DNA of 64,000 nucleotides from Cirrosporium novae-zelandiae (Eukaryota), in NCBI GenBank assembly GCA_026023565.1, contig JAPETS010000053.1:1-64000 (forward strand), written 5' to 3'. The position numbers and the translations under genes are program-made. The notes beneath the pieces were generated by a model. That model saw only the letters and a list, made by a program, of their open reading frames with translations. It was not told where the DNA came from and did not search any database. Positions 24,361 to 63,144 of this stretch are shown here, piece by piece; the first letter of the stretch is position 1; every line of letters starts with the position of its first letter.

Positions 24361-25142
24361 CTTTAATCTAGCTTTGACCCACAACACGGTCAGTAACGTT
24401 GTACGTTGGCATTCAAGAGGACATGCAGGAGATGGTTTTCAGCGTTGTGAATACACTAGACCAAATAGACAGTCTACCCTAGACCATCTATAAACCATAG
24501 ACCGGCCAAGCCAAGGCGGCCAGTCTGGTCAATCTAGGCTATTCACAACACTGACGGTTTTGATCAAAGGTTCGACGTGTGATTCTGATAAGCCAACGAT
24601 TTGAGTGGCGCCATGATAGATGAGGCCATGGAGCGGTATCTCAAGAGCTTGGCCAAAGAAAATGGTGCCTGCGCGAGGCAAGCCGGTACCAATTACCTAA
24701 AATCGAACAATTAGGTTCAGTTTAGAAGCTTATTGGATCACGATATTTCTCTGGACGGTGTAAGATATCAAAGGAGCAAGCCAGGAGCACAATACTAAGC
24801 CGATGAATTTGTTTGAACATAAAAGCACAAGAGACTTTGACAAGAAATCAACATAAGAAATAAACGACGTTGTTGACATGATTGTTAGGATCTGACTATT
24901 CTTAACACTGTGCAAATAATGTACAAATACTGTGTAGATGGTAGGAAAGGAGTTGAGCTTGACTTGAGTGGCGCTCAAGTTGTCAAAATCTCGTGGAATA
25001 GATACAGTCAAGGTCGGCATTATCCACAGAACCTTCTTCTTGAAATCTTTGGGATCAAGTCAAGTCAAGTAAAATAGCTGTTGCTCCCATACACATTCAG
25101 CCATGTTTATTAAAATATCGGCCAGCATCAGTACTTAAAACA

Positions 25143-25540: not shown

Positions 25541-26097
25541 TTCTGTAGTTTATAGATAAAAATACGGTTGACTGGGACTCTGGGATTTATTAAAAGGATG
25601 TTTGGTCTGTTTGACAGTGACTTCATTAGGTATGTGGCACGTGCGTGGGTACCTTTATTAGTGCCTTGGTGTCTTGATACTTGATGCCTCGATGCCTTAA
25701 TATTTAGACCTAGTTAGTCACGTGTTATGCTGTTGTCTTCGTATTCCCCGATAGCCGACAAAATTTAGAAGCTCACTAGTCTACAGCAACTAAAGCTCAC
25801 TTTGCGCCTGAAGCCAAAATCTCATTAATTCTTTCGTCACCCATGGACTTCTTGAACATATCAATAAACAATAATGATACATAAACCAAGTTAGTACATA
25901 ACTTGTCAGAGATCTCCAGAGTAATCTATTACTTGGATCAGGGAGCTTTGTTCGATTACCATCAAAGAGTTCCCTCTGATTCCAAATTCACATTCTACTT
26001 TATGGAAACAACCTGACAGTCGCATAATCTACAGTTTCCTAGTGATTGAACAGAGTGAGGGTATTTCATAAAGCTGTTGGCAGCTTTACATTTCGCA

Positions 26098-28615
26098 ATG
26101 GATCCTACCAAAGATTTCTCGTCATTTCAGAGAGATGTAACATCTACTCTAGTCAGTACCACAAAAACCGTCGGTCAAATTTCTGTACAGGATTTGTCAT
26201 TTCAAACGTCAATCAACCCCTCGCTCTCAAAATCTCTGGATAACCAAAGAACGCGCTTGTTAGGCCTTGCCGAAAAGTTATTGAAGACAGCTACTAGTGG
26301 CTCTGGGGTTGATGCGCAACCGCTCGAGGATGCGGATGCTGTTGAAGACAACTGGCGAGGGGTCGTTGATATAATCGATAACCTTCTAGAAAAGGTTGAT
26401 TCTTGCCTTGATGAATACACTGGGGTGATAAAAAGATTGAGCCCAGCAGGACAGACACAGTCATCAGGAGCTTCAACGGAGCGGACACATTCTAGACCTA
26501 AATTTGGTCAATCCAAGAATATACCAAAACCACAACTTCTTTTCAATAAAGTACCTACCAACGATGAAGTTACAACATTTAAACCACTTCTTACGTCGAA
26601 ACCCCACGCTATCGAACCATTGGATGAATCTCTTAAAACTTTTGTTGATGAAGATGGGCAAGAGGCGTATGACATCTCATTTTATCATCTTGTTAAAGAC
26701 CCCCAACAATTCCAACATCAAATTGACACCACTTTCAGATACAAAAACCCATATGAAACAGAAATCGACCGATACAAGTATCCTAAATTCGTTTATGAGC
26801 GAAAAGAGCCGATACCCTACCTACCATTTGAATCTACAGCGGCAACATTTGTGGATACCCCCGAAGCTGTGACCGCCATGCTCGCCGAATTGAAAGAGGC
26901 CAAGGAAATAGCAGTAGATCTCGAACACCATGATCAAAGGTCGTATATCGGAATCGTCTCGCTGATGCAAATAAGCACTCGAGACAAAGATTGGATCATA
27001 GATACCCTCAAGCCTTGGAGGGAAGACCTTCAAGCTCTCAACGAGGTATTTGCGGATCCAAACATCTTGAAGGTAGGTCTGAAGCCGTTGTATTATCCGA
27101 ACATAATTGAACGTAGAAATAGGTCTTTCACGGCTCGCATATGGACATGATCTGGTTGCAGCGAGATCTAGGTTTGTATATAGTTGGTCTGTTCGATACT
27201 TTTCATGCTACAAATGCTCTAGGCCATCTAAAACATAGTCTGGCGGCATTGCTTGAACGATATGTACACATTATAGCAGACAAGCAGTATCAACTAGCAG
27301 ACTGGCGAACACGGTATAATCCACCCACAACTAACTGAAGCCATTCGATAGCTAATGACGTCTTAGGCCGCTGTCGGATGTCATGATGAAATACGCCCGA
27401 TCCGACACACATTATCTCCTCTATATATACGACAGGCTTCGAAATGATCTAATTGAACAATCAAACCCAAGTCTTCCTGATGGAGATTTGATTGACCAGA
27501 TCCTTGATAATTCTAAAAAAGAGGCCTTACAGCGGTATGAACGGCCATTCTACGACGATGCTAGAGGAAGTGGCCGGTTTGGATGGTATAACCTTCTGAC
27601 TAGAAGCTCGGCTATTTTTACCAAAGAGCAGTTCTCTGTGTTTAGAGCTGTCCACAGATGGAGAGATACCGTTGCACGCAAAGAGGATGACTCAATCTAT
27701 TATGTCATGGCCAACAAGACGATATATAACCTGGCACGGGCGATGCCGATAGACGTGTCTTCCGTCATTGCAGCATGCAATCCTATCACGCCAGCCATAG
27801 AAAGAAGATTTTCGGAGCTTGCGAAACTAATCAAAAAGGCCAAGGATGCCGGGAAGGACGGCCCCGAGTTTCGTGATGTGATCCGGCCGTGGAAAACGAG
27901 CGCTGAAATTCCCCAGACTTTGGTTCAAAGCCAAGAGACTTCAGAGCCAGTCCAAGCGAACATCAAAATGGTGTCATGTACCCCGGCGAGCGCTTTGGCT
28001 GCCAGGTCTTCGGAATCTCGTTTCTGGGGGGGCACATTAGCCAACAATCCCGCTCACGAGATCTGGAGGGGTTTCGATACGGTACCTGAAGCTCTTCGTT
28101 TGGCTTTGCCGCTACCCCAGCTCGCCTCCGGGGAGCCGATTATACAGAGCATAGCGGCAGAAAGGCTGCCAGCATCTGCAGAAACCAACTCGGAACCGGA
28201 ACCAAGTTCTGGTAGGAAACGTGAGCGTGAAGAGGTGATAGTCCTAAATGCTTCCAAGAAAAGAATGGCCCCGGCATCCGAAGACGATCAGATCGGAGAC
28301 GCGTCCTCAAACACCAGTAGCCCCGTTGATAAGAACAAGAAAACGTCAAAGAGGATTGCCCGTAAGCAGGCAAAGGAGGCACGGCGACTCGCTAATATGA
28401 TGAATAACCTTGAAAATAATAGAGAAGATGGGGACCAAGAAGCATTCGACTATGAGAATGCTACATCGGTGCTTCATGCAAAGACAAGCAACAAGGCAGC
28501 CTCGACAACACAACCAAAGGCATTCAATCCTTACGCAAAGGCTATGGAAGCACCGGCAGGAGCAAAAAAGACGCACCGGGAGCAGACAGGGAGAAGCTTC
28601 ACGTTCAAGCGTTAA
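26098..28615 (+). CDS. RRP6: Nuclear exosome 3'-5' exoribonuclease Rrp6
   Basis: PMC2NT-like N-terminus, DEDD exonuclease ([48 protein letters not shown]), HRDC ([11 protein letters not shown]); introns 26667-26738, 27073-27122, 27314-27366. Confidence 0.97.
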
Positions 28616-31496: not shown

Positions 31497-34012
31497 ATGT
31501 CGGTCGCTACAATGCTTCAACCCGCCTCGAGAATGTCCCGCGCATCCACATCTTCATCCTCTTCATATGTCCCGATGACTCGACAAAACACAATGTCCTC
31601 GCACGATGGCAGATCTCTTCGCCAATCGAAGCGCTACTCCGTCACGGCCGTCTATCTGTCCATGTCTGCCAAGGACAAAGATTTGGAGATTGATGATGCA
31701 CTTGCGAAAGGTAATGGTGTGCATCGTTGGATAATTGCTTGAGCTAATGCATCTTTCCAGCCCAGAAGATATTACGCGAATTAAAATCCAAAATATCATC
31801 GCAGTCGAAAAAGAACTTTGTACTTGAAAAGGATGTTCGTTACTTGGATTCTAGAATCGCACTTCTTATTCAAAATCGCATGGCCTTGGAAGAGGTATCT
31901 TGTTTCATCTCTGTCGATTCGGAACATCTACTAACTGAACCAGCAAAATGAAGTCGCAAGCCATCTCGAAGATGCGACTGACCTTCAAGAAGGTTTCTTC
32001 CCAAATGATGAAAAGACTCAGAAATATGGCAATCTATTTTTTCTCCTCCAATCCGAACCTCGTTATATCGCTCACCTCTGTCGGCTTGTTACAATGGCTG
32101 AAATAGACTCTTTATTGCAAACTGTCATGTTTACTATTTATGGAAACCAGTATGAAAGCAGAGAGGAACATCTGCTGTTGACCATGTTTCAGTCCGTCTT
32201 GACTTACCAGTTCGAAAATACCCCAGAATACTCGTCTTTGCTTCGACAAAATACTCCTGTTTCTCGTATGATGACGACCTATACCAGACGTGGACCCGGC
32301 CAGAGCTATCTAAAGGATATCCTCGCAGACAAAATCAACTCGCTAATTGAACTGGAAGATGTGGATTTGGAAATTAACCCGCTCAAAGTCTACGAGCGGA
32401 TGGTAGCACAGATCGAAGAAGATACCGGTACTCTTCCTCCATATCTACCCAAGGGTGTTACTGGAGAGGAAGCTGCAGCCAACCAGCAGGTTCAGGCCAT
32501 AATCGAGCCGAGATTGACCATGTTGATGGATATCGCGACTTCGTTCCTAACCACCATTATCGATGCTGTGGATGAGACTCCCTACGGAATTCGTTGGATT
32601 TGTAAACAGATTCGAAGTCTGTCCAAGAGGAAATACCCCGATGCTTCGGACACGACCATCTGCACCCTTATCGGTGGTTTCTTTTTCCTTCGATTCATCA
32701 ACCCCGCCATAGTCACTCCACGGTCATACATGCTAATCGAGCATATTCCAAATGACCATCCTCGTCGAACACTAACCTTGATTGCCAAGATGCTCCAGAA
32801 CCTGGCCAACAAACCATCCTATGCCAAGGAACCTTATATGGCACGGCTACAGCCATTCATCCATCAAAACAAGGAGCGAGTCAACAAGTTCATGTTTGAT
32901 CTCTGCGAGGTACAGGACTTTTATGAAAGCTTGGAGATGGATAATTACGTGGCCTTGTCCAAGAGAGACCTTGAGCTCCAAATAAGTTTGAACGAAGTGT
33001 ATGCAACACATTCCTTGTTAGAAAAACACGGCGCTGCGCTAGCCAAGGATGAGAGCAACCATCTCAGCATCATCCTAAGTGAGCTCGGACCAGCGCCTGC
33101 GCAACTGCCACGCAAGGAGAACAGGGCTATCAATCTTCCGCTGTTCAGTAAATGGGAGACGTCCCTTGATGACCTTACTGCGGCTTTGGATATTACCCAG
33201 GAGGAGGTTTTCTTCATGGAGGCCAAGTCGACATTCGTCCAGATAATGCGGTCGCTTCCAGAAAAGAGTTCAGCTACCCGAAGACCTCTGAGACTAGATC
33301 ATGTCGCAGAAGCTGCCGCTACTCTGAAGAATGATGGGGTCATGGTGAAGAAAGGGATAAGAGCCATGGAACTGCTGAGCCAACTACAAGAGATGGGAGT
33401 CACTGACAAGTCGGATGGGTTTGCCCTCCTTCGGGATGAAGTCGAGCAAGAATTGGTACACCTTGGATCCTTGAAGGAGAAAGTTGTTGAAGAGACCAAG
33501 AAACTCGAGGAAGTCTTCAAAACAATCAGAGATCACAATGCGTACTTGGTTGGTCAATTGGAAACCTACAAGTCATATCTCCACAACGTGCGAAGCCAAT
33601 CTGAGGGCAAAACAAGAAAACAGCAAAAACATCAAGTTCTTGGACCCTACAAGTTTACCCATCAACAGCTAGAAAAGGAAGGTGTCATTCAGAGAAGCAA
33701 TGTTCCAGAGAACAGGCGAGCAAACATCTATTTCAACTTTACGAGTCCCTTGCCTGGGACCTTTGTTATTAGTCTGCATTACAAAGGTATGTCTTGGAGT
33801 GGTATTTCTTTTCCTTTTTTAGGTGGTGGGCTGTACACTAATTCTCTACAGGTCGTAGTCGTGGTCTCCTTGAGCTTGATCTAAAGCTTGATGACCTCTT
33901 GGAGATGCAAAAGGATAATCAAGAAGACCTTGACCTTGAATACGTTCAATTCAACGTATCCAAAGTCTTGTCATTGTTGAACAAAAGGTTTGCCAGGAAA
34001 AAGGGTTGGTAA
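31497..34012 (+). CDS. Ras GTPase-activating protein (GapA/Gap1-Sar1 type) with RasGAP_C domain
   Basis: RasGAP motifs [48 protein letters not shown]; introns 31711-31760, 31895-31943, 33787-33851; ends [12 protein letters not shown]. Confidence 0.96.
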
Positions 34013-34819
34013 AATCTTCCCAAGGTACCTTGCATAATGAGCGACACCAAGAGACGGATCGAGTGAACATGGCCAATGCACAATATGTTCCTATTCGATG
34101 GTATAGCAGACTAGGAAGTATATTGCAGCTGGCGATGGAGGTAATGAGTCTGTCCATGTACCATACAAACAACATTGTTATGGTCGACAACTCAATCAAC
34201 ACGACTCGGTGACTTTTAATGTTTGATGATATCCGGATATCGGGATCATCAGTGGAATCATGATGATTTAGGTTATGTCGCTACCGCTATTTCCTTTTTG
34301 GGGTTGAATGGGCTTTGCTATTCTACTTTTCCTCTTAATATGTGATACTCCGAAAGGCGATTCCTTTGGGATGGAAGGCGTTAGAGTTAACAGGATCTCG
34401 CGAATGGATTGAGGGAGCGTGTTTTGGTTTCATCTCATAACTTGCTATGGCTGTGCTCTCAGCCTGCAGGCTCGGGTTGGGTGGGACTTAATTGAACTGA
34501 GACGACTGGCTTTGGGTTGGAATGGATGGGATGGATGGATGGATGTGACGGCGGATTCCTGGACTTTTTTTTTTTTTCCTTTTTTTTTTATAACTCAACA
34601 AATGTGTACGTCTTGCGTTTGTTGCTGCTCTGATCGAAATATCGAAATGGTGTGGCTGGTCGTGATATGTATTTGTATGATGAATTTGAACGAAGGTCGT
34701 TTTTTGTGAGTGTTTTTTGCTCTTGAGAAGAAAGAAAGATTTATACATTTATTTGTTAAACTGTTAGAGTTTGGATCTTATCTTATATGAGGGTGTATAT
34801 GAGTGAGTGAGTGTGAGTG

Positions 34820-36325
34820 TGAATGTGAGATGGCAATGGCAAGTTTTCAAACAAGTACTTTAATATCTCCTCCCTCTTCCGCCCTTCCTTCTTCTTCTCT
34901 TCCCTTCCTTTGCTTTTTCGTGAGAAAGGGTAGCGTTGGGCAAAATTACAAATCAAGTTGTAGGGCTTATGAATGAATGAATGGGTGGGTAGGTGAGTAG
35001 GTGAATGAGTAAGTGTGGGTGGATGGGTGAGTGTATGAACGCTAATAGAACACAATGGGGCACAATTCAATACACAATACTATAGATATGATGGGAGAAA
35101 GAAGAATATAAAGGTATAAAAGAATATAAAAATTGTAGTCTTTTTTTTTTCCCCCACATTTTTTTGGTTCGTTGGATATACCTTATAAAAAACTACCCCC
35201 ACTTCACTCCACTCCCCAACCAAGGGTGATAACTCAACTCAAACAAATAAATTATTAATTAGACAACTTTCTTTTCTCCATACAAAATATATAAATGAAT
35301 AAATATATATATATAGGAACCCCTTCTCCTCCCTCCCCCTTTTTTTTTTCTTATCCAAATCCAAGAAATGATTTTCTGTATACTTATTCTATATACTTAT
35401 TCATTTGTTCATTTGTTCACTTAAATAGATGGATTTCTTTAGAAATAGGGAAATTCTTGACTATTTGACTACCTTCTTCCTTTCTTCATTTGCTTGCTTG
35501 GTTAAACACCCCCCCCCCCTTCCTCCCTTCCCCCCCGACCCCCCGCCTTTCCTAGGATGGATAGGATGTATGTTTGTTTTTTTACTGAGGATAGGAGATG
35601 GAGATGGGTCTACTATAGTGGAGATAGGGATGAGGATGGATATGAGGGGATATGGATTCATCCCATCTCATCTCATCTCACTCTATCCCATCACATCTCC
35701 TATATATATATATAATAAAAAATGGACATGGACATGAAAATCCACAAGTAATATATTTATGATGGATATGGATTCTATCCCATTGCAACCTTACTCAGGC
35801 CCATCCCCATCACATCTACCATATAATTATCCGAAGCAATAATACATAATACATCTCCAACCAAATGTAATCAATTCCCCTCTCTTCTTCCCCTTTTCTC
35901 CCTCTTTCCCTCCCTTACTATACATATTTGGTATTACATTTGCATTTGTATTTATATTGTGCTCTATGATTGCTCTCTTGGGATAAGGAAATCATAATCA
36001 CCCTACTCCCCTATTCACCTATACTCAACCTTATTCACCCACACCTCACACCTACTCACACCTACTCAACGTATTCATTCAACTCACCTATACCCACTCA
36101 CTCGACTCACAAACCCTTACTATAAACTTGCAATTGTGCGAGACAGAGTAGTAGTCTAGTGTTGAACGAGATTGCAAAATTGCTCAACACTATCCCCTCC
36201 CTTTTTTTTTTTCGCAAAAAAAGAAAAAGGAAGGGAAAGGGAAGGGGAAGAAAGAAGGGAAATATTAGAGCGACTTTTCTCTAACTTTCTCTTGAAGAAC
36301 TTGCCATTAACCATCTACTCTATAT
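34820..36325. repeat. Degenerate inverted repeat (arms ~34820-35110 and ~35880-36325) in a low-complexity intergenic block
   Basis: Colinear reverse-complement matches such as GATGGCAATGGCAAGTTTTCAA vs revcomp of TTGAAGAACTTGCCATTAACCATC, TAGCGTTGGGCAA vs revcomp of TTGCTCAACACTA, and GCACAATTCAATACA vs revcomp of TGTATTTATATTGTGC. Confidence 0.7.
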
Positions 36326-40665: not shown

Positions 40666-41860
40666 ATACCTACAAGGGATAAGCTAACTATTGACATTCC
40701 CCAAACATGTTGATGTTTCATCATTATTTAGTGCCACATGGGTGACATGCACATTGGTGCTGTAAGGAGCCGTGGTCAATATGTGAGCCGTTCGTCCGTG
40801 AAAACAGATCCCTGAAAGCCTGACAAGCCTTCAGCTGTCACTCCACCCGTGGCCGGTACAAAAGTGATCTTCTCAGGTACGATAGATACAGCGATTACGG
40901 ATTTCAAGTATGTCAACCAACATATCATTTGCCTGGGTTCATTTGCCTTGGGTGCATTTGCCCTGCATGCATTTACTATGTGCTGATATGCGAACGTGAT
41001 GCGACAGAATATACTTCAAGGGCTTGGTATTACCACTCTCTACAACGATGATTGTATTATATAGAATAGATACTTATCAACTCGATACCGGCAAATGTAG
41101 AATTAGAGAACCATTTATATTGTCAATTATGGAGGTAACTGCTTTGCTATCTGCATCAAAGGCCATGACCTCCGAATACCAGAAGCCGTAGGACGTACAG
41201 GGTAGCGACTGGAAGCCGGCACATTACCAGGCTCTCATCAATCCATTACTTTAGCCACTTCCAACATCCACCTCTTCGCCCATTTCAATGACCTACTACA
41301 TACAGGTCCGTCTTCCAATCCGTCTCTATTGCGGTCACTCAAAGCAAGTTGGATGCTGAACTGCAAAGGGTACATCCAAAGCGAGCGTTCAACCGTCATG
41401 CCGAAGCATAAACCCTTTTTTGGTGACCGAAGTCGTAAAAGTACAAGCGAATGTCCGTAGCGTCCTCCGGGGACCCAGGGACGCCAATATTAAGATTAAA
41501 ATAGAACCATCCAACTATCCAAAAAGGCCCGAGGTGCATGAAAGAACATGTACATTCGAATATAGGTGAAGCGGGGATGAGGGGACATCTGGAAGATGGA
41601 GTGTAGAGCAAGTGATCGGTACAGCACGGGAAACCCATGCTGAATGTCTCGGAGATCATTTGCTTAAACTTCCATCTGCGTCCCAAGATTCTCCGCGCAG
41701 CCTCTGCCAATTAACGTTGGATGGTCGTATTAGGTATATGGTGTTGAACGTACAACAACGTTCATTATATGCAAGAACTCCGTTTCATGCTGCCGTGAAT
41801 CATAAAGCGCAAGTGAGAAAAACAATATGGTAATACATCGTAGTATGTGGATGGGTTTGG

Positions 41861-49984: not shown

Positions 49985-51523
49985 ACATCTACATAAATGC
50001 ACATGTACAAAATGACTTATCCACTACCACTTTTTTTTCTCTCCCCCTTTTTTTTTCTTCTCCACCTCCTTCATCTCGTCCACCTCCTTCATCTCGTCCA
50101 CCTCCTTCATCTCGTCCAACTCGTCCAACTCGTACATCTCCCACGCCCATCCCCCCCAAGAGAGCGAAAGAAAGAGAAAGCAAAAGAGACAAGAATCACT
50201 CAATCAAATCCAAATCCAAACCAAATAAATTTTTTCTTTCACCGATCTTTAGTTCTCCACCTCTAATCTCCAGTCTCCATTTACTACTACTCCCATTCCT
50301 ATTACCCACAACCCACAACCCACAACCCCTCCTCCCTAAAGGAAATAAGGAAAGAGAAAAGAGTCAGGATGTTATTATTATATACACCTTTACATCTTTC
50401 CCCTACTCCTTTGCTCCTCTTTGCGAGGTTCCTAAAGTTCCAAGTACTTGAAACGAATAACAATCCCCTATGGATGAATGGATCGATTGATATTAATATT
50501 GAAAGGGGTAGGGTGTCTCCCTCTAACCTCCTCTCTAACCCCTCTACTTCTCTGACCTGTCCTAACCTAAATCAAGCCAAGCCAAGTTAAGTTCCCAACT
50601 CCATGTTCCATTACCTATCCTCTACAACCCCCCCCCTCCTCTCTCTCCCTTTTACTCCATATCACTCCCTCCCTCTTCACTCCACCTACAAGAAAAAAGA
50701 GAGAAAAAAACAAAAAAAAAAACAACAACCTCATCACCTCATCCCCATCCCCATCTCAATCCCCTACCTACCCACCCAAACACAAACACACACAAAGAAT
50801 AAGAAGGAGAAAAAAATGAATGAGAATAGGAAGAAGCAACTACTAATTCAATTTGGCTCAATAAAAAAAATAAATAAAAAAAAAACACAGCCTTGTACCT
50901 ATTCCACCCACCCAACCACCTCCAAGTATCCCAACTTCTAGTATCTTAATCTCAATCCCAATTCCAAATTCAATTCCAATCCTCCTTTCCCCTCTCCAGT
51001 CTCCACCCCCATCTATCCCCACCACGCACACACACAACTATTAAAATCAAACCTTTCATCGGTTAGTCATTTTACTTTTTTTTTTTCTTTGTTCTGCTTT
51101 GTTTTGTTTTGGATTTTATATAAGTATACATACAGATAGAAGTATAAAGGGAGGGAAAAGAGGAGGATAGATGGATGGATGGGGGTTTGTGATTTAGGGA
51201 GGTTAGAAAACGGGAGCAAGGAGTGGGAGTGGGAGTGGAAGCGAGAGTAAGAGGGAGAGAGAGAACCACCCTACTCTACACTACACGTTTTTAAATATCA
51301 ATCTATCTATTCATTCATTCATTCATTCATTCATTTGATATAACACAACAATATCCCTTCTCCTCCCTCTCTTTGGCTTCTTTTCCTCTCCCTCTCGTCT
51401 TTTTTATGGGGGGAGAGAGATTTTGTAGGTAGTGTAACAATGGGAATAGGAATAGTAACATGAAGATAGAAATAGAGATTGGGTGGAGGTGGAGGGTTTG
51501 GATTTGAATTATTCTCATTCTGT

Positions 51524-51527
<4 letters not shown>

Positions 51528-51571
<44 letters not shown>
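51528..51571. repeat. (CT)n microsatellite
   Basis: Read directly from the sequence. Confidence 0.95.
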
Positions 51572-51575
<4 letters not shown>

Positions 51576-53191
51576 CCTCTTTTGGGAGATGGAAGGAGAA
51601 GGAAAGGGTGGAAACAGTGGTTGGTGGTGGATAAGGAAGGGATAAGTCGTTTGTGGGGTTAATCGTCTGGGTGGGTGTTATTATATCCCATCTTATCCTA
51701 TCCTATCCTATCCGTATATATATATACCTTACTCCTTACTCCTTACTCAGCACCCCAAAGAAAGAAAAAATAAGAAAAAATAAAAAAATAAAAAAATAAA
51801 ACTTTCCCCAAACAAAGCCATAGATTTAGAAGTTGGAACTCCGTGCCTTGTTATGCCTTCTTATCCCATCCCTTCCATTTGCATTTGCATTTGTATTTGC
51901 ATCTACATTTTGATAAGGGATTTAGTATGATTGGTATGATTTCGAGCCCCCCCTTTTTCAGTCTGGTATCTTATATCCTGTATGGTTGGTTTTTGGTTTT
52001 ATGTATACGTGGATATGGGAATAAGGGAATAGGGGGATAGGGGAATAGGGAATGGAGAGGGGAGTTGGTTGGTTTGGCTTTGTATGTGGAGAGGAGAGGT
52101 GTGTGTGGAGAGAGAGGTTGTTGGTTTGGATTGAAAGGTTATACGGAGAGGGGGTTTGCTGGTTGGTTAGTTGGTTGGTTAGTTGGTTGGGGCGTGGGAA
52201 CGTTTCTCTTTGGTGATGGTAATGTAGAGGGAAGCGATGTGGTAAAGGGGGGTATGGGATGGGGGTCAACTAGCCAGATATTCCTCATCCATTCATTATC
52301 CGTTGATACAGTATGGAGAATCCGATCTTTCTATAACTCAGGCTAAAATTGGCTGAGTTAGTTGAATAAATAAATAGATAAATGAATCAACGAATCAAAA
52401 AAGTACCACCTATAGTTTAACTAACAACCTAGGTACCTACCTACCTACCTACCTACCTACCTACCTACCTATCTACCTATTTAATGGTGTTATAATATTT
52501 ATAATTTTTAATAGGCACTTACTATCCCTCCCTACCTGCTTGAGAACGACGACGACAACGACAACGGCGACGACAACGGTAATATTATAGAGATGTGATA
52601 GTAGTGATGATTATTCATTATTTTACGCCCACATGCCGCTTAAAAGCCATGGCGGACAGATTGATGTAGTAGTAGTAACCGAACCGAACCGAATTAAATC
52701 GAATCAAATTGAATTTGGGGTTTTTTTTTCAAGTATATAACCAGAATCGAAAATATTGCCCCTTGAAAAAATAGACAAGGTAAATGAATGAGTGGCTGAC
52801 AACGTGTGTGTGTGTGTGCGATATTGCTAGGGTACAAGGTGTGATAATGATGATGCGTCCCTCATATGCGGTATCTGAATTGGATTGAATTTGAATGCTC
52901 CAGGCACCAGGAACCACGGAAATTGAAGTTGTAATAATAATAATAATGAAAACAAATCATGAAGATTTGAATGATAGAAGAGAGAGGAGAGGAATAGGCC
53001 AGACAGATAAAGCTACCTAGGTATATAAGAGAGTTCCTCGCGCCGGATATCATTTTGGAATAATCAAATCAATCAATCATAAAACGTAATCCACCACCCC
53101 CTTGGACCAATTTCCGCTTACACCACACGCTAGATGCCACCTAACACGATTCTTTTAACCATCCCCTTCCACACCCCACTTCCACACCCAC

Positions 53192-54827
53192 CTACTGATT
53201 CCCACTCAACCCCCCAACCCACGACGAAAAAGCAACCGGATTTCTCGTCTGCATGAAAACAGTCCCGGGACCCGTGAACTTGCATACCAACCCCTCACCG
53301 GAGCTGAGACCTGAGATGATTCCTCCGCTTGCGACGCGCTCGACGTTGTATTTGCAGTTCCAGCAGACGAGGTGGCCGTTGTCGATTATGTATTTTTCGC
53401 CTTCGATGAGCTGGTGGGGGAGGGGGGGGGAATGGTTAGTGTTATAGTTTTTATAAGAAGGGGTAGGGATGTTGGAGAGTATGTTGGAGGGGTTGTGATG
53501 GGGTATGGGGTTGGCTAATTTGAATTAAACTCAACTCCGTTTGCCTCGACAGAGCTAGCAGAGGTTATCGGGTTGGAGTTCGGAACGAGAACATGCTAGT
53601 CCCAGAGCAATCCAGGCAATTAGTATTTAGCCCTCGATGTATACCTGTGCTCGTTTGGCCGGAAGCCTCCCAAGATGACTTGGTAATTCTGCCACCTTTG
53701 ACAGCTGCCAGTATCCTAGGGACTCAGGTGTTTGCAAAGGACTAGATACTAATGGCCTAGTGCTAGAGGATAAAGGTGGATTGGTCCGAGTAAAGCAAAC
53801 AAAACATGACAATGACGACAGCAGTATACCCATCCAAGCTCTAAATTCTGGGAAAAAACTTACATCCTTTCTGATTATAGCCCCAAAACTTGAAAACCAC
53901 ACAACTCCATTTCCACTCATTTTATACACAAACAAACCCTCCCCGCTAAACATTGCTTTGCTTAGACTCTGCGCTTTGTAATCCTTGACTATGCCCTGCG
54001 TGCATGCGAGGAAATTATCCTTTCCTACATGCCATATGTTTTGAGGACTGTTGAGTTGTAGCATGGCGATATCACCCAGAGATGTGGGGGCCAGGAGAAG
54101 CTCGCCAGGACCGGTATAGGTACTGTGATTAATCTCGCCACCAGCGATAAACTTTTTCATGGAGAATTTGATAGAACCCTTCAGAGTCATGGTAGGGGAC
54201 ATGGAGATCATGGCACCGGGCTTCACCGACAACGGACAACCCATTGCAAGTTGAAACGTTAGGAGAGAGTTTGTATCTCTATGGCTGATCCTGAAGCTTC
54301 CACCGTTGAATGTTCCCACATCATCTTGCGTAGCCTGTGCTCCTATGAAATGTCCAGCCGGAGGAGCACCTCCCGGCATCTGCGCGACCCCACCGTTTGG
54401 AGGAAAGCCCGGAGAAGCCAAGCCAGGAGAGGCTAGAGGCATGCCAGGAGACATTGGTAGGGCCTGAGAATATGACTGTTGACGTTCTGGTGTTTGTGAT
54501 GGAGGTGGAGGATGTGATATTGACGAGTGCCTACCACCCGGAGCCGGTTGCATTTGGGGAGGTGGTGGATATCCTCCATTTTGAGGAGAAGCTTGTTGAG
54601 GGGGTGGAGGATAGTTTGCATGAAAACCTGGTGATTGAAGACCGGGTGAGGGCTGAGGTGGTGGCGGTGGGAAATGTTGGCCTGTAGAGGTCAATTGCTA
54701 GATTCAGAGCGATGTCGGTCATGGTCTCGTTACCTTGGGCCGAAGTTGGAGGAGCTGTGATGATTTAGTAGGAAATTGAAACTGATGCGCTATACTTACG
54801 AGGATAGTAATTCCCTTGACTAGACAT
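53192..54827 (-). CDS. AIM24/DUF124-family protein with Pro/Gln-rich N-terminus
   Basis: 4 exons (introns 54755-54799, 54682-54733, 53411-53863); [82 protein letters not shown]. Confidence 0.92.
53525..53775. ncRNA. Candidate structured RNA element inside AIM24 intron 3
   Basis: 36-nt imperfect stem 53612-53647 / 53725-53760, inner hairpin CCAAG-ATGA-CTTGG, second hairpin AACTCC...GGAGTT (53533-53580); no family recognised. Confidence 0.4.
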
Positions 54828-61019: not shown

Positions 61020-62460
61020 GATAAACAGATAAACCAATCAAGAACCTCTCCTCCCTCTCTAGCGCTCTCGACCTACAGTACTTACTCTATATCCAACCTC
61101 CAACTAGAACAACAGTGTGACCAATCACTAGCGCTCTCAACCTACTCTATATTCAACCCCCAACCCCCAACCTAGTCTATAGACTCTCCAGAGGGAGAGC
61201 GAGATAAACTTCCCATCCCATCCCATCCCATCTCATATGCAGACACAAACCCAAAACCCAAAACCTACATCCTTGGTACATGCAACAAACGAGCCAACCA
61301 ACCAACCAACAGAAGAAGACGATCCCAGTGATTGGTGGCGCACTTGGAAATCGAATCTGCTAAGCAAGTAACCTGGTATTTACTGCATGGGATTCCGACA
61401 CAAACACACACAACTTACTCTACTCGAGTACTCAAGTACTCAAGTACTTCCTATACTACGAAGTAAATCCTGCCGGATGTCCATAAATACCCTGCAAGGT
61501 TTGGGACCGATTCCCAAGAGCGCTAATTAATGATTGGTCACATTGGTACTATGTATGTATCAATATTTCTTCTTCTTCTTCTTCTTCTTCTTCTTCTTCT
61601 CTCAGTACAGGACTTTCTGCTTCCCACGAACCAACCGACCAAACGATCGACCAGCCGACCGACCGAACCGAGCGAAAGGGATTTTTACTTTCCACCCTGA
61701 GATATACTCGAGTAGGGAAGGTGAGATTGACTTCCCATCCCCCATTCCCATCTCATCGCATCGCATCGCATCTGCATATGTACGTAGTAGATACAAACCT
61801 ACAAAATCTTGCATCCCTTGGTACTTTGGGGACATGTAACGAACGAATGAACTGACTATAGTACACTGATGCTCTCGGGAATCGAACTCAACCTGGTATT
61901 TTATGGCATCTTCCATCTGTACAAGTACAAAGTACTCATATCAGATCAAATAAATACAAAATACCAAGTTACGAAGCAAATTACAAATGGAGTAGATTTT
62001 TTTCATCCATCCATCTATCTATCGACTTGGTATCTACCTACCTACATGTAACGAACAAACGAACGAACCGACCAACACTGATGCTCTCGGGAATCGAACC
62101 TAACCTGGTAGACTATTTACTATGTAATCATGGCATCCTACCAAGTACACATGTAACGAACCAACCAACCAACCAACCAATCCATCCTGATGCTCTCCGG
62201 GAATCAGAACCCCTAGTCAAATCTGATATTTACTGTGTAGAGAGAGTATTGCATCCCACAGTACTCGAGTAGTACTACGTACATGTAACGGACCACATAG
62301 CTAACTAATTAACCAACGAACGAACCAACCAATCCAACCACACTTATCCTCAAAATCAAATAAATCCAAAATCCAAAATCTAAACACAAACACAAAACCC
62401 AAATCCATCCATCTATCTACTTGTTTTGTATCCACCTACCTACCTAGACTACTACCTCTA
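61020..62460. repeat. Mosaic of direct and inverted degenerate repeats containing a B-box-like motif
   Basis: Exact 25-mer ACACTGATGCTCTCGGGAATCGAAC at 61863 and 62075; variants at ~62187 and ~61336; inverted copy ~61410-61550; duplicated blocks ~61190-61300/61710-61850 and ~61940-62045/62350-62450. Confidence 0.75.
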
Positions 62461-62636: not shown

Positions 62637-63144
62637 TTCTACATACTTCCAGCCATTTAATCCATTCCGCGGCGACCGTAAAGCATAAAGTATAAAGTAT
62701 AAAAAAAAATTAACATAAAAGTAAAGTATAATAATTGCATCCCCGTTGTTCCCCGTCTGTCCCCCCTCCGTCCGGTGGGTGCCGATATAGGACAATGCAT
62801 GTATGCATGCATGTATAGGACATTGTGGGTTGGAACCTAAAAAAAAGAAAAGGATTGGAGCAAACAAACATTGAACCCTTTCCCTTTCTTATCTTTTACT
62901 CTCTTACTTTCACTCTCTCCCTCTCTCTTAGACTACCCGAAATGAAAAGAGAAGAGAAAAAAAAACGAAAGGAGGAAGGAAAGGAAAGGAAAAGAAAGGA
63001 AAGGAAAGGAAATATAGTATAGTATATTGGTAATTACTGTAGTTGGGGAGATTGGTAGGTAGGTAGATAGGTAGATAGTCTAACTGGAGATTAATTAATT
63101 ATCACCTCAATTCATTCCTAATCACTCACTCACTCACTCATTCA

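Follow-up and report, generated by a model that had tools for sequence, protein, structure and literature searches.

Introner-like elements of Dothideomycetes are present in hundreds of near-identical copies and occupy new intron positions, and they exceed regular introns in length and fold stably (PMC3609843). In the Hypoxylaceae, symmetrical stwintrons carry terminal inverted repeats of 45-55 nt together with a nested donor (PMC8469720). That internal pairing can make a long intron behave like a short one, in the manner of a zipper stem, is an established principle for RPS17B (PMC2536676). In yeast, some introns contain structured RNAs for which phenotypes are on record (PMC4937481), and among fungal hairpin small-RNA loci, well-supported milRNA hairpins are short, with fewer than 20 nt between the duplexes (PMC9757828).

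Here we describe intron 2 of an AIM24 gene of Cirrosporium novae-zelandiae, which lies within a 64-kb stretch of DNA (hereafter, the window) and holds an imperfect inverted repeat, or foldback. Like introner-like elements, this intron is much longer than regular introns and has a stable predicted structure (453 versus 47-73 nt; sense fold z-score -2.26, and -3.09 for its core), but its position is common to 22 of 23 relatives and no copy of it was found in the searched sequence (compare PMC3609843). With stwintrons it shares a strong internal symmetry and the potential to form double-stranded RNA; unlike the terminal repeats reported for these (PMC8469720), however, the AIM24 foldback is internal, starting 66 nt after the donor and ending 183 nt before the acceptor. 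On reading intron 2 we saw no nested second donor and one GTAAGT only. As small, non-coding inverted-repeat DNA with a rod-like fold, sitting in non-coding sequence of a gene-dense region, the foldback also resembles MITEs and other foldback non-autonomous DNA transposons. It differs from them in that neither intact terminal repeats, nor a target-site duplication (TSD), nor another copy was found, and its arms are far more diverged than those of a MITE that lies in the same window.

Resemblances to functional intronic structures come with similar differences. As for the zipper stems of RPS17B (PMC2536676), the 5′ splice site comes to lie near the branch point through a predicted pairing; in the AIM24 intron, in contrast, shuffled sequences achieve the same, and the pairing responsible lies not within the foldback but in the flanks, where it forms a 7-bp A/U helix. 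Like intronic ncRNAs of Saccharomyces (PMC4937481) and fungal hairpin small-RNA loci (PMC9757828), the foldback is structured, in sense orientation and inside a spliceosomal intron, whereas those examples are backed by conservation and/or RNA detection and the AIM24 foldback is a predicted structure. Its hairpin is also much longer than is typical of the fungal milRNA precursors described in PMC9757828. Literature searches, which did not specifically target AIM24 introns, returned nothing in print on AIM24 intron 2, and the three papers found under the species name were all taxonomic.

Taken together with the analyses below, we consider it somewhat more probable than not (roughly 0.55) that the foldback is a lineage-specific, decayed palindromic insertion in an ancestral short AIM24 intron, spliced out passively, and not a new RNA gene.

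AIM24 intron 2 and its counterparts in relatives

The AIM24 gene lies on the minus strand of the window (Table 1). In Pfam searches, the translation of 53864-54697(-) matches positions 1-149 of the PF01987 (AIM24) profile (E = 1.6e-35) and that of 53195-53410(-) matches positions 152-205 (E = 8.7e-19), so that the two AIM24 exons occupy adjoining parts of the profile. A 354-aa deposited protein, annotated as a hypothetical protein from a metagenome-assembled genome of Cirrosporium novae-zelandiae (class Xylobotryomycetes), is 100% identical over the part searched and reads AIIRKD|LIEGEKY across the intron 2 junction. The coding length of the three exons (28 + 818 + 216 nt) amounts to 354 codons, which is the length of this protein. 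The intron begins with GTAAGT (53858-53863) and terminates in CAG (53411-53413), and, were it retained, in-frame reading would meet a stop after 78 codons. AIM24 intron 2 is a true phase-0 GT..AG intron, and it is presumably spliced as annotated.

The original prediction had singled out this intron as oversized, with a high-complexity core between low-complexity flanks, and both descriptions hold. Its 453 nt compare with 118 nt for intron 1 of the same gene and 47-73 nt for the orthologous introns; the C/A-rich 3′ flank is of low complexity and has no predicted fold, while the foldback itself is high-complexity. When compared with dinucleotide shuffles, the flanks of intron 2 are less structured than their shuffled counterparts.

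We scanned metagenome contigs with the exon upstream of intron 2 and obtained 25 loci at 63-82% protein identity, in 23 of which both flanking exons could be placed by tblastn. A GT..AG intron occupies the identical phase-0 site in 22 of these 23 loci, with lengths of 47-73 nt and 16 distinct sequences. In the one remaining locus (L005), the flanking exons are contiguous and the intron is absent, reflecting either intron loss or a contig derived from cDNA. The foldback is absent at the orthologous intron site in all 23 relatives. Named protein matches at 70-79% identity come from genera of several different Pezizomycotina groups, and this spread means that nothing close to C. novae-zelandiae is among them. 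Judged from these sequences, the ancestral state of AIM24 intron 2 is a short intron, with approximately 390 nt gained on the long branch leading to this fungus.

An imperfect inverted repeat at the centre of the intron

At the heart of the original prediction was a 36-nt stem, for which the coordinates and the letters of both arms proved exact. Of its 36 positions, 25 are Watson-Crick pairs, 4 are G-U pairs and 7 are mismatches, the same on each strand, and 25 Watson-Crick pairs in a gapless 36-nt inverted window were reached in none of 200 shuffled introns (mean 19.8, maximum 24). The prediction had counted three G-U pairs in the pre-mRNA; the count is four, and it is four on the other strand too. 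This stem forms the central part of a longer, 204-nt foldback (53594-53797), whose minimum free energy (MFE) structure on the sense strand has its apex near 53695-53698 and one bulge per arm. The contiguous helices of the foldback measure 8, 8, 8, 7 and 6 bp; it holds a 21-nt segment that is 86% complementary, and the arms of its best duplex lie 103 nt apart. When the core is compared with its own reverse strand, nhmmer aligns 53601-53764 (E = 9.6e-6 with 164 kb searched), and alignment of the left half with the reverse complement of the right half gives a score (z = 3.7) that is reached by none of 500 shuffles. The inverted repeat in AIM24 intron 2 is real.

Two smaller hairpins that had been proposed alongside the stem fared less well. 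The letters of the CCAAG-N4-CTTGG hairpin are present at 53670-53683, but the sense MFE structure pairs those bases with 53708-53720 instead. The stability of the neighbouring second hairpin, tested as 53533-53580, falls within chance (z = -1.27 and -1.28, with 23 of 200 shuffles as stable on each strand).

Fold z-scores were calculated from 200 dinucleotide shuffles per region. For the whole foldback, the sense strand reaches z = -3.67, with 1 of 200 shuffles folding as well, and the antisense strand z = -0.97 (37 of 200). The comparison with shuffles that had been suggested as a check of the prediction comes out in its favour for 53612-53760, where the sense strand has z = -4.76 and none of the 200 shuffles is as stable; the antisense strand of the same segment has z = -2.97 (1 of 200). 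Over the 276-nt core (53525-53800) the values are -3.09 for sense and -2.24 for antisense, and over the whole of intron 2 they are -2.26 and +0.60, respectively.

To place these values, we folded 5,110 segments of 150 nt across the window (step 25, both strands). Placed exactly, the foldback would rank 3rd of 5,111 such segments in composition-corrected MFE. Loci of comparable or greater strength by shuffle z-score are 61876-62025(-) at -7.44, 24426-24575(-) at -5.89, 33826-33975(-) at -4.90 and 41551-41700(+) at -4.40. About six loci across the 64 kb fold strongly, the foldback included; it is genuinely unusual and not unique, and one other strongly folding locus in the window is a transposon (24440-24553).

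Table 1. Features of the AIM24 gene and its second intron (positions in the window)
Feature	Position	Strand	Basis or remark
AIM24/DUF124 first coding exon	54800-54827	-	ATG 54825-54827; deposited protein
AIM24 intron 1, 118 nt	54682-54799	-	gene model and deposited protein sequence
AIM24 middle exon (proline-rich N-terminal part and most of AIM24 domain)	53864-54681	-	Pfam, deposited protein
AIM24 intron 2, 453 nt, phase 0, GT..AG	53411-53863	-	Pfam, deposited protein
Segment between foldback and GTAAGT	53798-53857	-	fold z +1.36 sense (tested as 53798-53863)
Imperfect 204-nt foldback (putative decayed palindrome)	53594-53797	-	66 bp in sense MFE; nhmmer; arm alignment
Outer left arm, starts TG	53594-53614	both	71% complementary to 53777-53797 over 21 nt
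Outer right arm, ends CA	53777-53797	both	pairs with 53594-53614
Left arm of 36-nt stem	53612-53647	both	25 Watson-Crick and 4 G-U pairs of 36
Right arm of 36-nt stem	53725-53760	both	pairs with 53612-53647
Small second hairpin (AACTCC..GGAGTT)	53527-53581	-	no more stable than shuffles
C/A-rich low-complexity 3′ flank, 114 nt, holds branch point and 3′ splice site	53411-53524	-	sense MFE 0.0
Putative branch point CACUAAC, branch A 53436, 25 nt from 3′ splice site	53435-53441	-	motif match
AIM24 last exon, 72 codons, stop at 53192-53194	53192-53410	-	PF01987; C-terminus of deposited protein GGLSGNQ

Tests for a selected RNA or a splicing role

Rfam covariance models gave no matches inside intron 2 at E ≤ 1 and none at the gathering score across the whole 64-kb window, and a tRNA scan returned no genes. 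The sense strand contains no C-box-like site at up to one mismatch, and the plus strand, though it has three C-like sites, contains no CTGA that could serve as a D box. Hallmarks of known RNAs are absent from the intron, as the original prediction had stated, both by the Rfam scan and by the C/D boxes. Outside the intron, Rfam hits at E ≤ 1 are chance matches to low-complexity sequence, for example of miRNA models to the CT/GA microsatellite at approximately 51450-51740. None of the five ORFs inside intron 2 matches a Pfam family at E ≤ 1. One ORF of 73 aa lies on the plus strand, and a palindrome is an unlikely coding relic.

An intron-encoded snoRNA, of either the H/ACA or the C/D type, is highly improbable. 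The antisense (+) strand does offer a mimic of the hairpin-H-hairpin-ACA arrangement, with AGAACA (53588-53593) between the hairpins and ACA (53799-53801) after the foldback. This layout, however, runs opposite to the host gene and would require a second hairpin as long as 204 nt, and on the plus strand the foldback is no more stable than its shuffles (z = -0.97). The sense-strand linker of 12 nt from the foldback to the second hairpin (TGTTCTCGTTCC) contains no ANANNA and, as it is devoid of A, no H box, and no ACA follows the second hairpin. With the sense strand also lacking a C-box-like site, the plus strand lacking CTGA, and no Rfam snoRNA family matched at E ≤ 1, the snoRNA reading is largely refuted.

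Selection on an RNA helix classically leaves G-U pairs concentrated on the transcribed strand. Such a concentration is not seen here, with 4 G-U pairs per strand in the 36-nt stem, and 8 of 66 bp on the sense strand versus 6 of 67 bp on the antisense strand in the whole foldback. The sense strand nonetheless folds better, by 9.6 kcal/mol. Of 200 palindromes simulated to decay in the absence of selection, 44% showed an advantage at least as large; the simulated palindromes were less decayed than the foldback (mean best MFE of -0.53 versus -0.35 kcal/mol per nt). Under this model, the strand asymmetry would be ordinary for a decaying palindrome.

These results bear directly on the reading of the foldback as a long hairpin RNA hosted by the intron, that is, a rod of approximately 200 nt that is diced into small RNAs (milRNA or hairpin-siRNA) or that stabilizes the excised intron as an ncRNA. 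Such an RNA would be consistent with sense z-scores of -3.67 (204 nt) and -4.76 (149 nt), both stronger than their antisense counterparts, and with the series of 6- to 8-bp helices and the 86% complementary 21-nt segment. The foldback is also of high complexity, has no second copy in the window and the 25 loci, and lies in sense orientation inside a transcribed gene, and the structured intronic RNAs of yeast provide a precedent (PMC4937481). Yet the foldback is missing from the orthologous intron in all 23 relatives, its G-U pairs show no strand preference, its strand asymmetry appears ordinary for decaying palindromes, and Rfam gives no match. Furthermore, its duplex arms are separated by 103 nt, as opposed to fewer than 20 nt in the well-supported, short milRNA hairpins of fungi (PMC9757828). 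We consider a hairpin RNA unlikely on balance. What stands of the intronic ncRNA proposed in the original prediction is the fold z-score; the Rfam match and the snoRNA boxes are missing. It is decidedly unlikely that the foldback represents an RNA gene that is young and lineage-specific, situated in an old intron, born from a palindromic insertion and acting as a long-hairpin precursor of small RNAs or as a stabilizer of the excised intron. If the hairpin-RNA reading were true, this locus would offer a snapshot of an intronic hairpin RNA locus arising de novo from inserted inverted-repeat DNA.

The structure might instead act in cis on splicing, with a self-folded core allowing the long intron to behave as though it were short. 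Just upstream of the branch point, nt 412-418 (AAAAACU) pair with nt 4-10 (AGUUUUU) in the whole-intron MFE structure, and the 5′ splice site is thereby brought from a linear distance of 417 to a structural distance of 8 from the branch point. This short distance, the location of the splicing signals in unstructured flanks, the folding of the core as a self-contained unit, and the principle established for RPS17B (PMC2536676) would all fit such an aid. However, among MFE structures, the only ones considered in this comparison, the distance was as short or shorter in 15 of 60 trials when all sequence separating 5′ splice site and branch point was shuffled (mean 21, s.d. 16), and in 55 of 60 when the core alone was shuffled. 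Hence the intron ends are not brought together by the core, and because of these core-only shuffles the splicing structure that had been proposed is not supported. Relatives, moreover, manage with an intron of 47-73 nt and no such element. A role of the foldback as a splicing aid is accordingly improbable.

Transposon marks, copy number and origin of the extra DNA

We scanned 53440-53850 for terminal inverted repeats (TIRs) with termini matching at 9 or more of 12 positions and flanked by a TSD of at least 3 nt, and repeated the scan at a stricter threshold of at least 10 of 12 over 53500-53830. No candidates emerged in intron 2, and the same scan recovered the control at 24440-24553. The stricter rerun, applied to seven strongly folding loci (the intron and six others), found only 24440-24553. 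This control is a MITE of 114 nt whose termini match at 11 of 12 positions (CAGCGTTGTGAA / CAGTGTTGTGAA) and which is flanked by an 8-bp duplication (ATGGTTTT/ACGGTTTT), a combination that we take to fit the hAT pattern. It lies 29 kb from the foldback and folds as well or better (z = -5.89 for 24426-24575(-)). In the foldback, by manual count, the terminal 12 nt of the outer arms match at 7 positions. Of the features that define a MITE, the foldback has the small size and the lack of coding capacity (204 nt; no Pfam families for the five intron ORFs), and it shows neither TIRs at its ends nor a flanking TSD.

The tetranucleotide AACA can be read by eye just outside both outer arms (53590-53593 and 53798-53801), a pair that failed the TIR and TSD scan. 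A likeness between the foldback and the MITE at 24440-24553, also noticed by eye (CAGGTGTT.../CAGTGTT...), proved to be due to chance, with 100 of 300 and 225 of 300 shuffles scoring as well.

Searches with blastn and nhmmer found no second copy of the foldback in the 64-kb window or the 25 loci, which together comprise 164 kb, about 100 kb of it from the relatives' loci. In sequencing run X1, which is possibly the source of the window, only 1 of 157,048 contigs lies on the AIM24 gene at 80% or greater likeness; this X1 contig, of 3,820 nt, passes through intron 2 without a difference. Contigs from X2 and X3, which represent other organisms of X1's study, match only short conserved exon pieces with no cover of the intron and are uninformative either way. 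The single X1 contig is a weak pointer to a single-copy foldback, given that X1 is perhaps the window's own source and that contigs cannot prove absence. With no transposon signature and no second copy in the sequence searched, a mobile origin of the foldback is thus unproven.

We consider it unlikely that the foldback still belongs, in recognizable form, to a dispersed MITE or introner-like family that is present many times in the genome. Its shape, small size and lack of coding capacity would suit such a family, and so would the TG...CA ends of its outer arms with AACA on both sides (a by-eye reading that, at four bases, is weak), the presence of a bona fide hAT-like MITE 29 kb away, and the greater length and stable folding described for introner-like elements in PMC3609843. 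No other copy appears, however, in the window or in the relatives' loci (64 and 100 kb, respectively); one X1 contig runs through the intron and no other among 157,048 does so, although this is weak as X1 is possibly the source. No TIR and TSD pair is present, and similarity to the window's MITE is no greater than that of shuffles (100 of 300 and 225 of 300). For an introner in particular, the intron position is ancestral and not gained, and a site common to 22 of 23 relatives argues against this class.

Among the three options that the original prediction had left side by side, a MITE-like insert, an intronic ncRNA and a cis-regulatory splicing structure, the insert fits best. This is because the approximately 390 extra nt are absent in 22 of 23 relatives, G-U pairs are equal between strands, and the strand asymmetry appears ordinary for decaying palindromes. 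Its MITE-like aspect did not carry over, with the TIR and TSD marks missing and a second copy not found in the limited sequence searched.

We propose that an ancestral short AIM24 intron took up approximately 390 nt on the branch to Cirrosporium novae-zelandiae. The centre of this extra DNA, the 204-nt inverted repeat at 53594-53797, would have arisen at the DNA level, either as a foldback or MITE-like non-autonomous transposon whose ends have become eroded, or as an inverted duplication during repair or replication. It would since have decayed to about 70% complementarity between its arms. Transcribed as part of the pre-mRNA, the foldback would leave with the intron through GUAAGU, CACUAAC and CAG, all of which lie in the unstructured low-complexity flanks, and the fold of the sense strand would be a by-product of the palindrome rather than a selected RNA. 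We infer both the DNA-level origin and the neutrality of the foldback from the comparisons above.

If this proposal is correct, the uptake of inverted-repeat DNA can lengthen a short, conserved fungal intron six- to ten-fold. The locus also suggests caution for genome scans, in that a strong fold z-score on one strand is not by itself enough to tell selected RNAs and decaying palindromes apart. Here, the distinction came from three controls: the strand symmetry of G-U pairs, simulated palindromes and orthologous introns.

Several further observations bear on the reading as a relic. The surplus of 390 nt has persisted while the arms diverged and the relatives stayed at 47-73 nt, which counts against a relic in that it could hint at constraint. 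Also pointing away from a relic, the fold of the sense strand is clearly more stable than those of its shuffles (z = -3.67 and -4.76), and that of the antisense strand less so. Conversely, and in keeping with a relic, foldback insertions do occur in this same window, as the element at 24440-24553 illustrates.

Foldback structures in the window

The most stably folding of the 150-nt windows in the grid scan, which was ranked by composition-corrected MFE on both strands, coincides with a short foldback element (z -5.89 on the minus strand, relative to shuffles). Its termini, CAGCGTTGTGAA and CAGTGTTGTGAA, match at 11 of 12 positions and are flanked by an 8-bp duplication (ATGGTTTT / ACGGTTTT). 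The element looks like a MITE, presumptively of the hAT type.

Among the loci tested, the strongest shuffle z (-7.44) belongs to a minus-strand hairpin, where our scan for terminal inverted repeats with a flanking target-site duplication found no such pair. The same scan found none at either of two high-complexity long-stem loci. The minus-strand locus lies at the 3′ end of a RasGAP-like gene, and the plus-strand locus sits just past the low-coordinate end of minus-strand PAP2-like ORFs, a side that would correspond to the 3′ end of that gene.

Features identified in the window
Feature	Position	Strand	Description
Foldback element	24440-24553		114 nt; termini and flanking duplication
Rrp6-like gene	26059-28612	+	PMC2NT, 3′-5′ exonuclease and HRDC domains
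High-complexity long-stem locus	33826-34025	-	z -4.90
High-complexity long-stem locus	41551-41725	+	z -4.40
CT/GA microsatellite, long	about 51450-51740		
(TACC)n tetranucleotide repeat	52430-52475		downstream of AIM24 gene; read from sequence
Hairpin	61876-62050	-	stem ~16 bp, AACTTGGTATTTTGTA... / ...ATAAAATACCAGGTT

Low-complexity sequence

Strong folding on both strands was also seen at 35551-36300 and 62876-63025, where purine-rich and pyrimidine-rich low-complexity tracts oppose one another; these are probably microsatellite-type mirror tracts rather than elements. In the Rfam search, miRNA and lncRNA models from plants and animals matched the CT/GA microsatellite weakly (E 0.12-0.97), all far under gathering scores, and we attribute these matches to chance.

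Gene structure at AIM24 and the Rrp6-like gene

Among the 23 metagenome loci carrying both exons that flank the AIM24 intron position, only one (L005) is intronless there, its exons abutting at 1126/1127. This locus represents either an intron loss or a transcript-derived contig.

In the Rrp6-like gene, the gap between two long ORFs (27148-27358) corresponds to positions 82-143 of the exonuclease profile. Because these profile positions fall there, we infer that one or more small exons, together with at least two short introns, are located in the gap.
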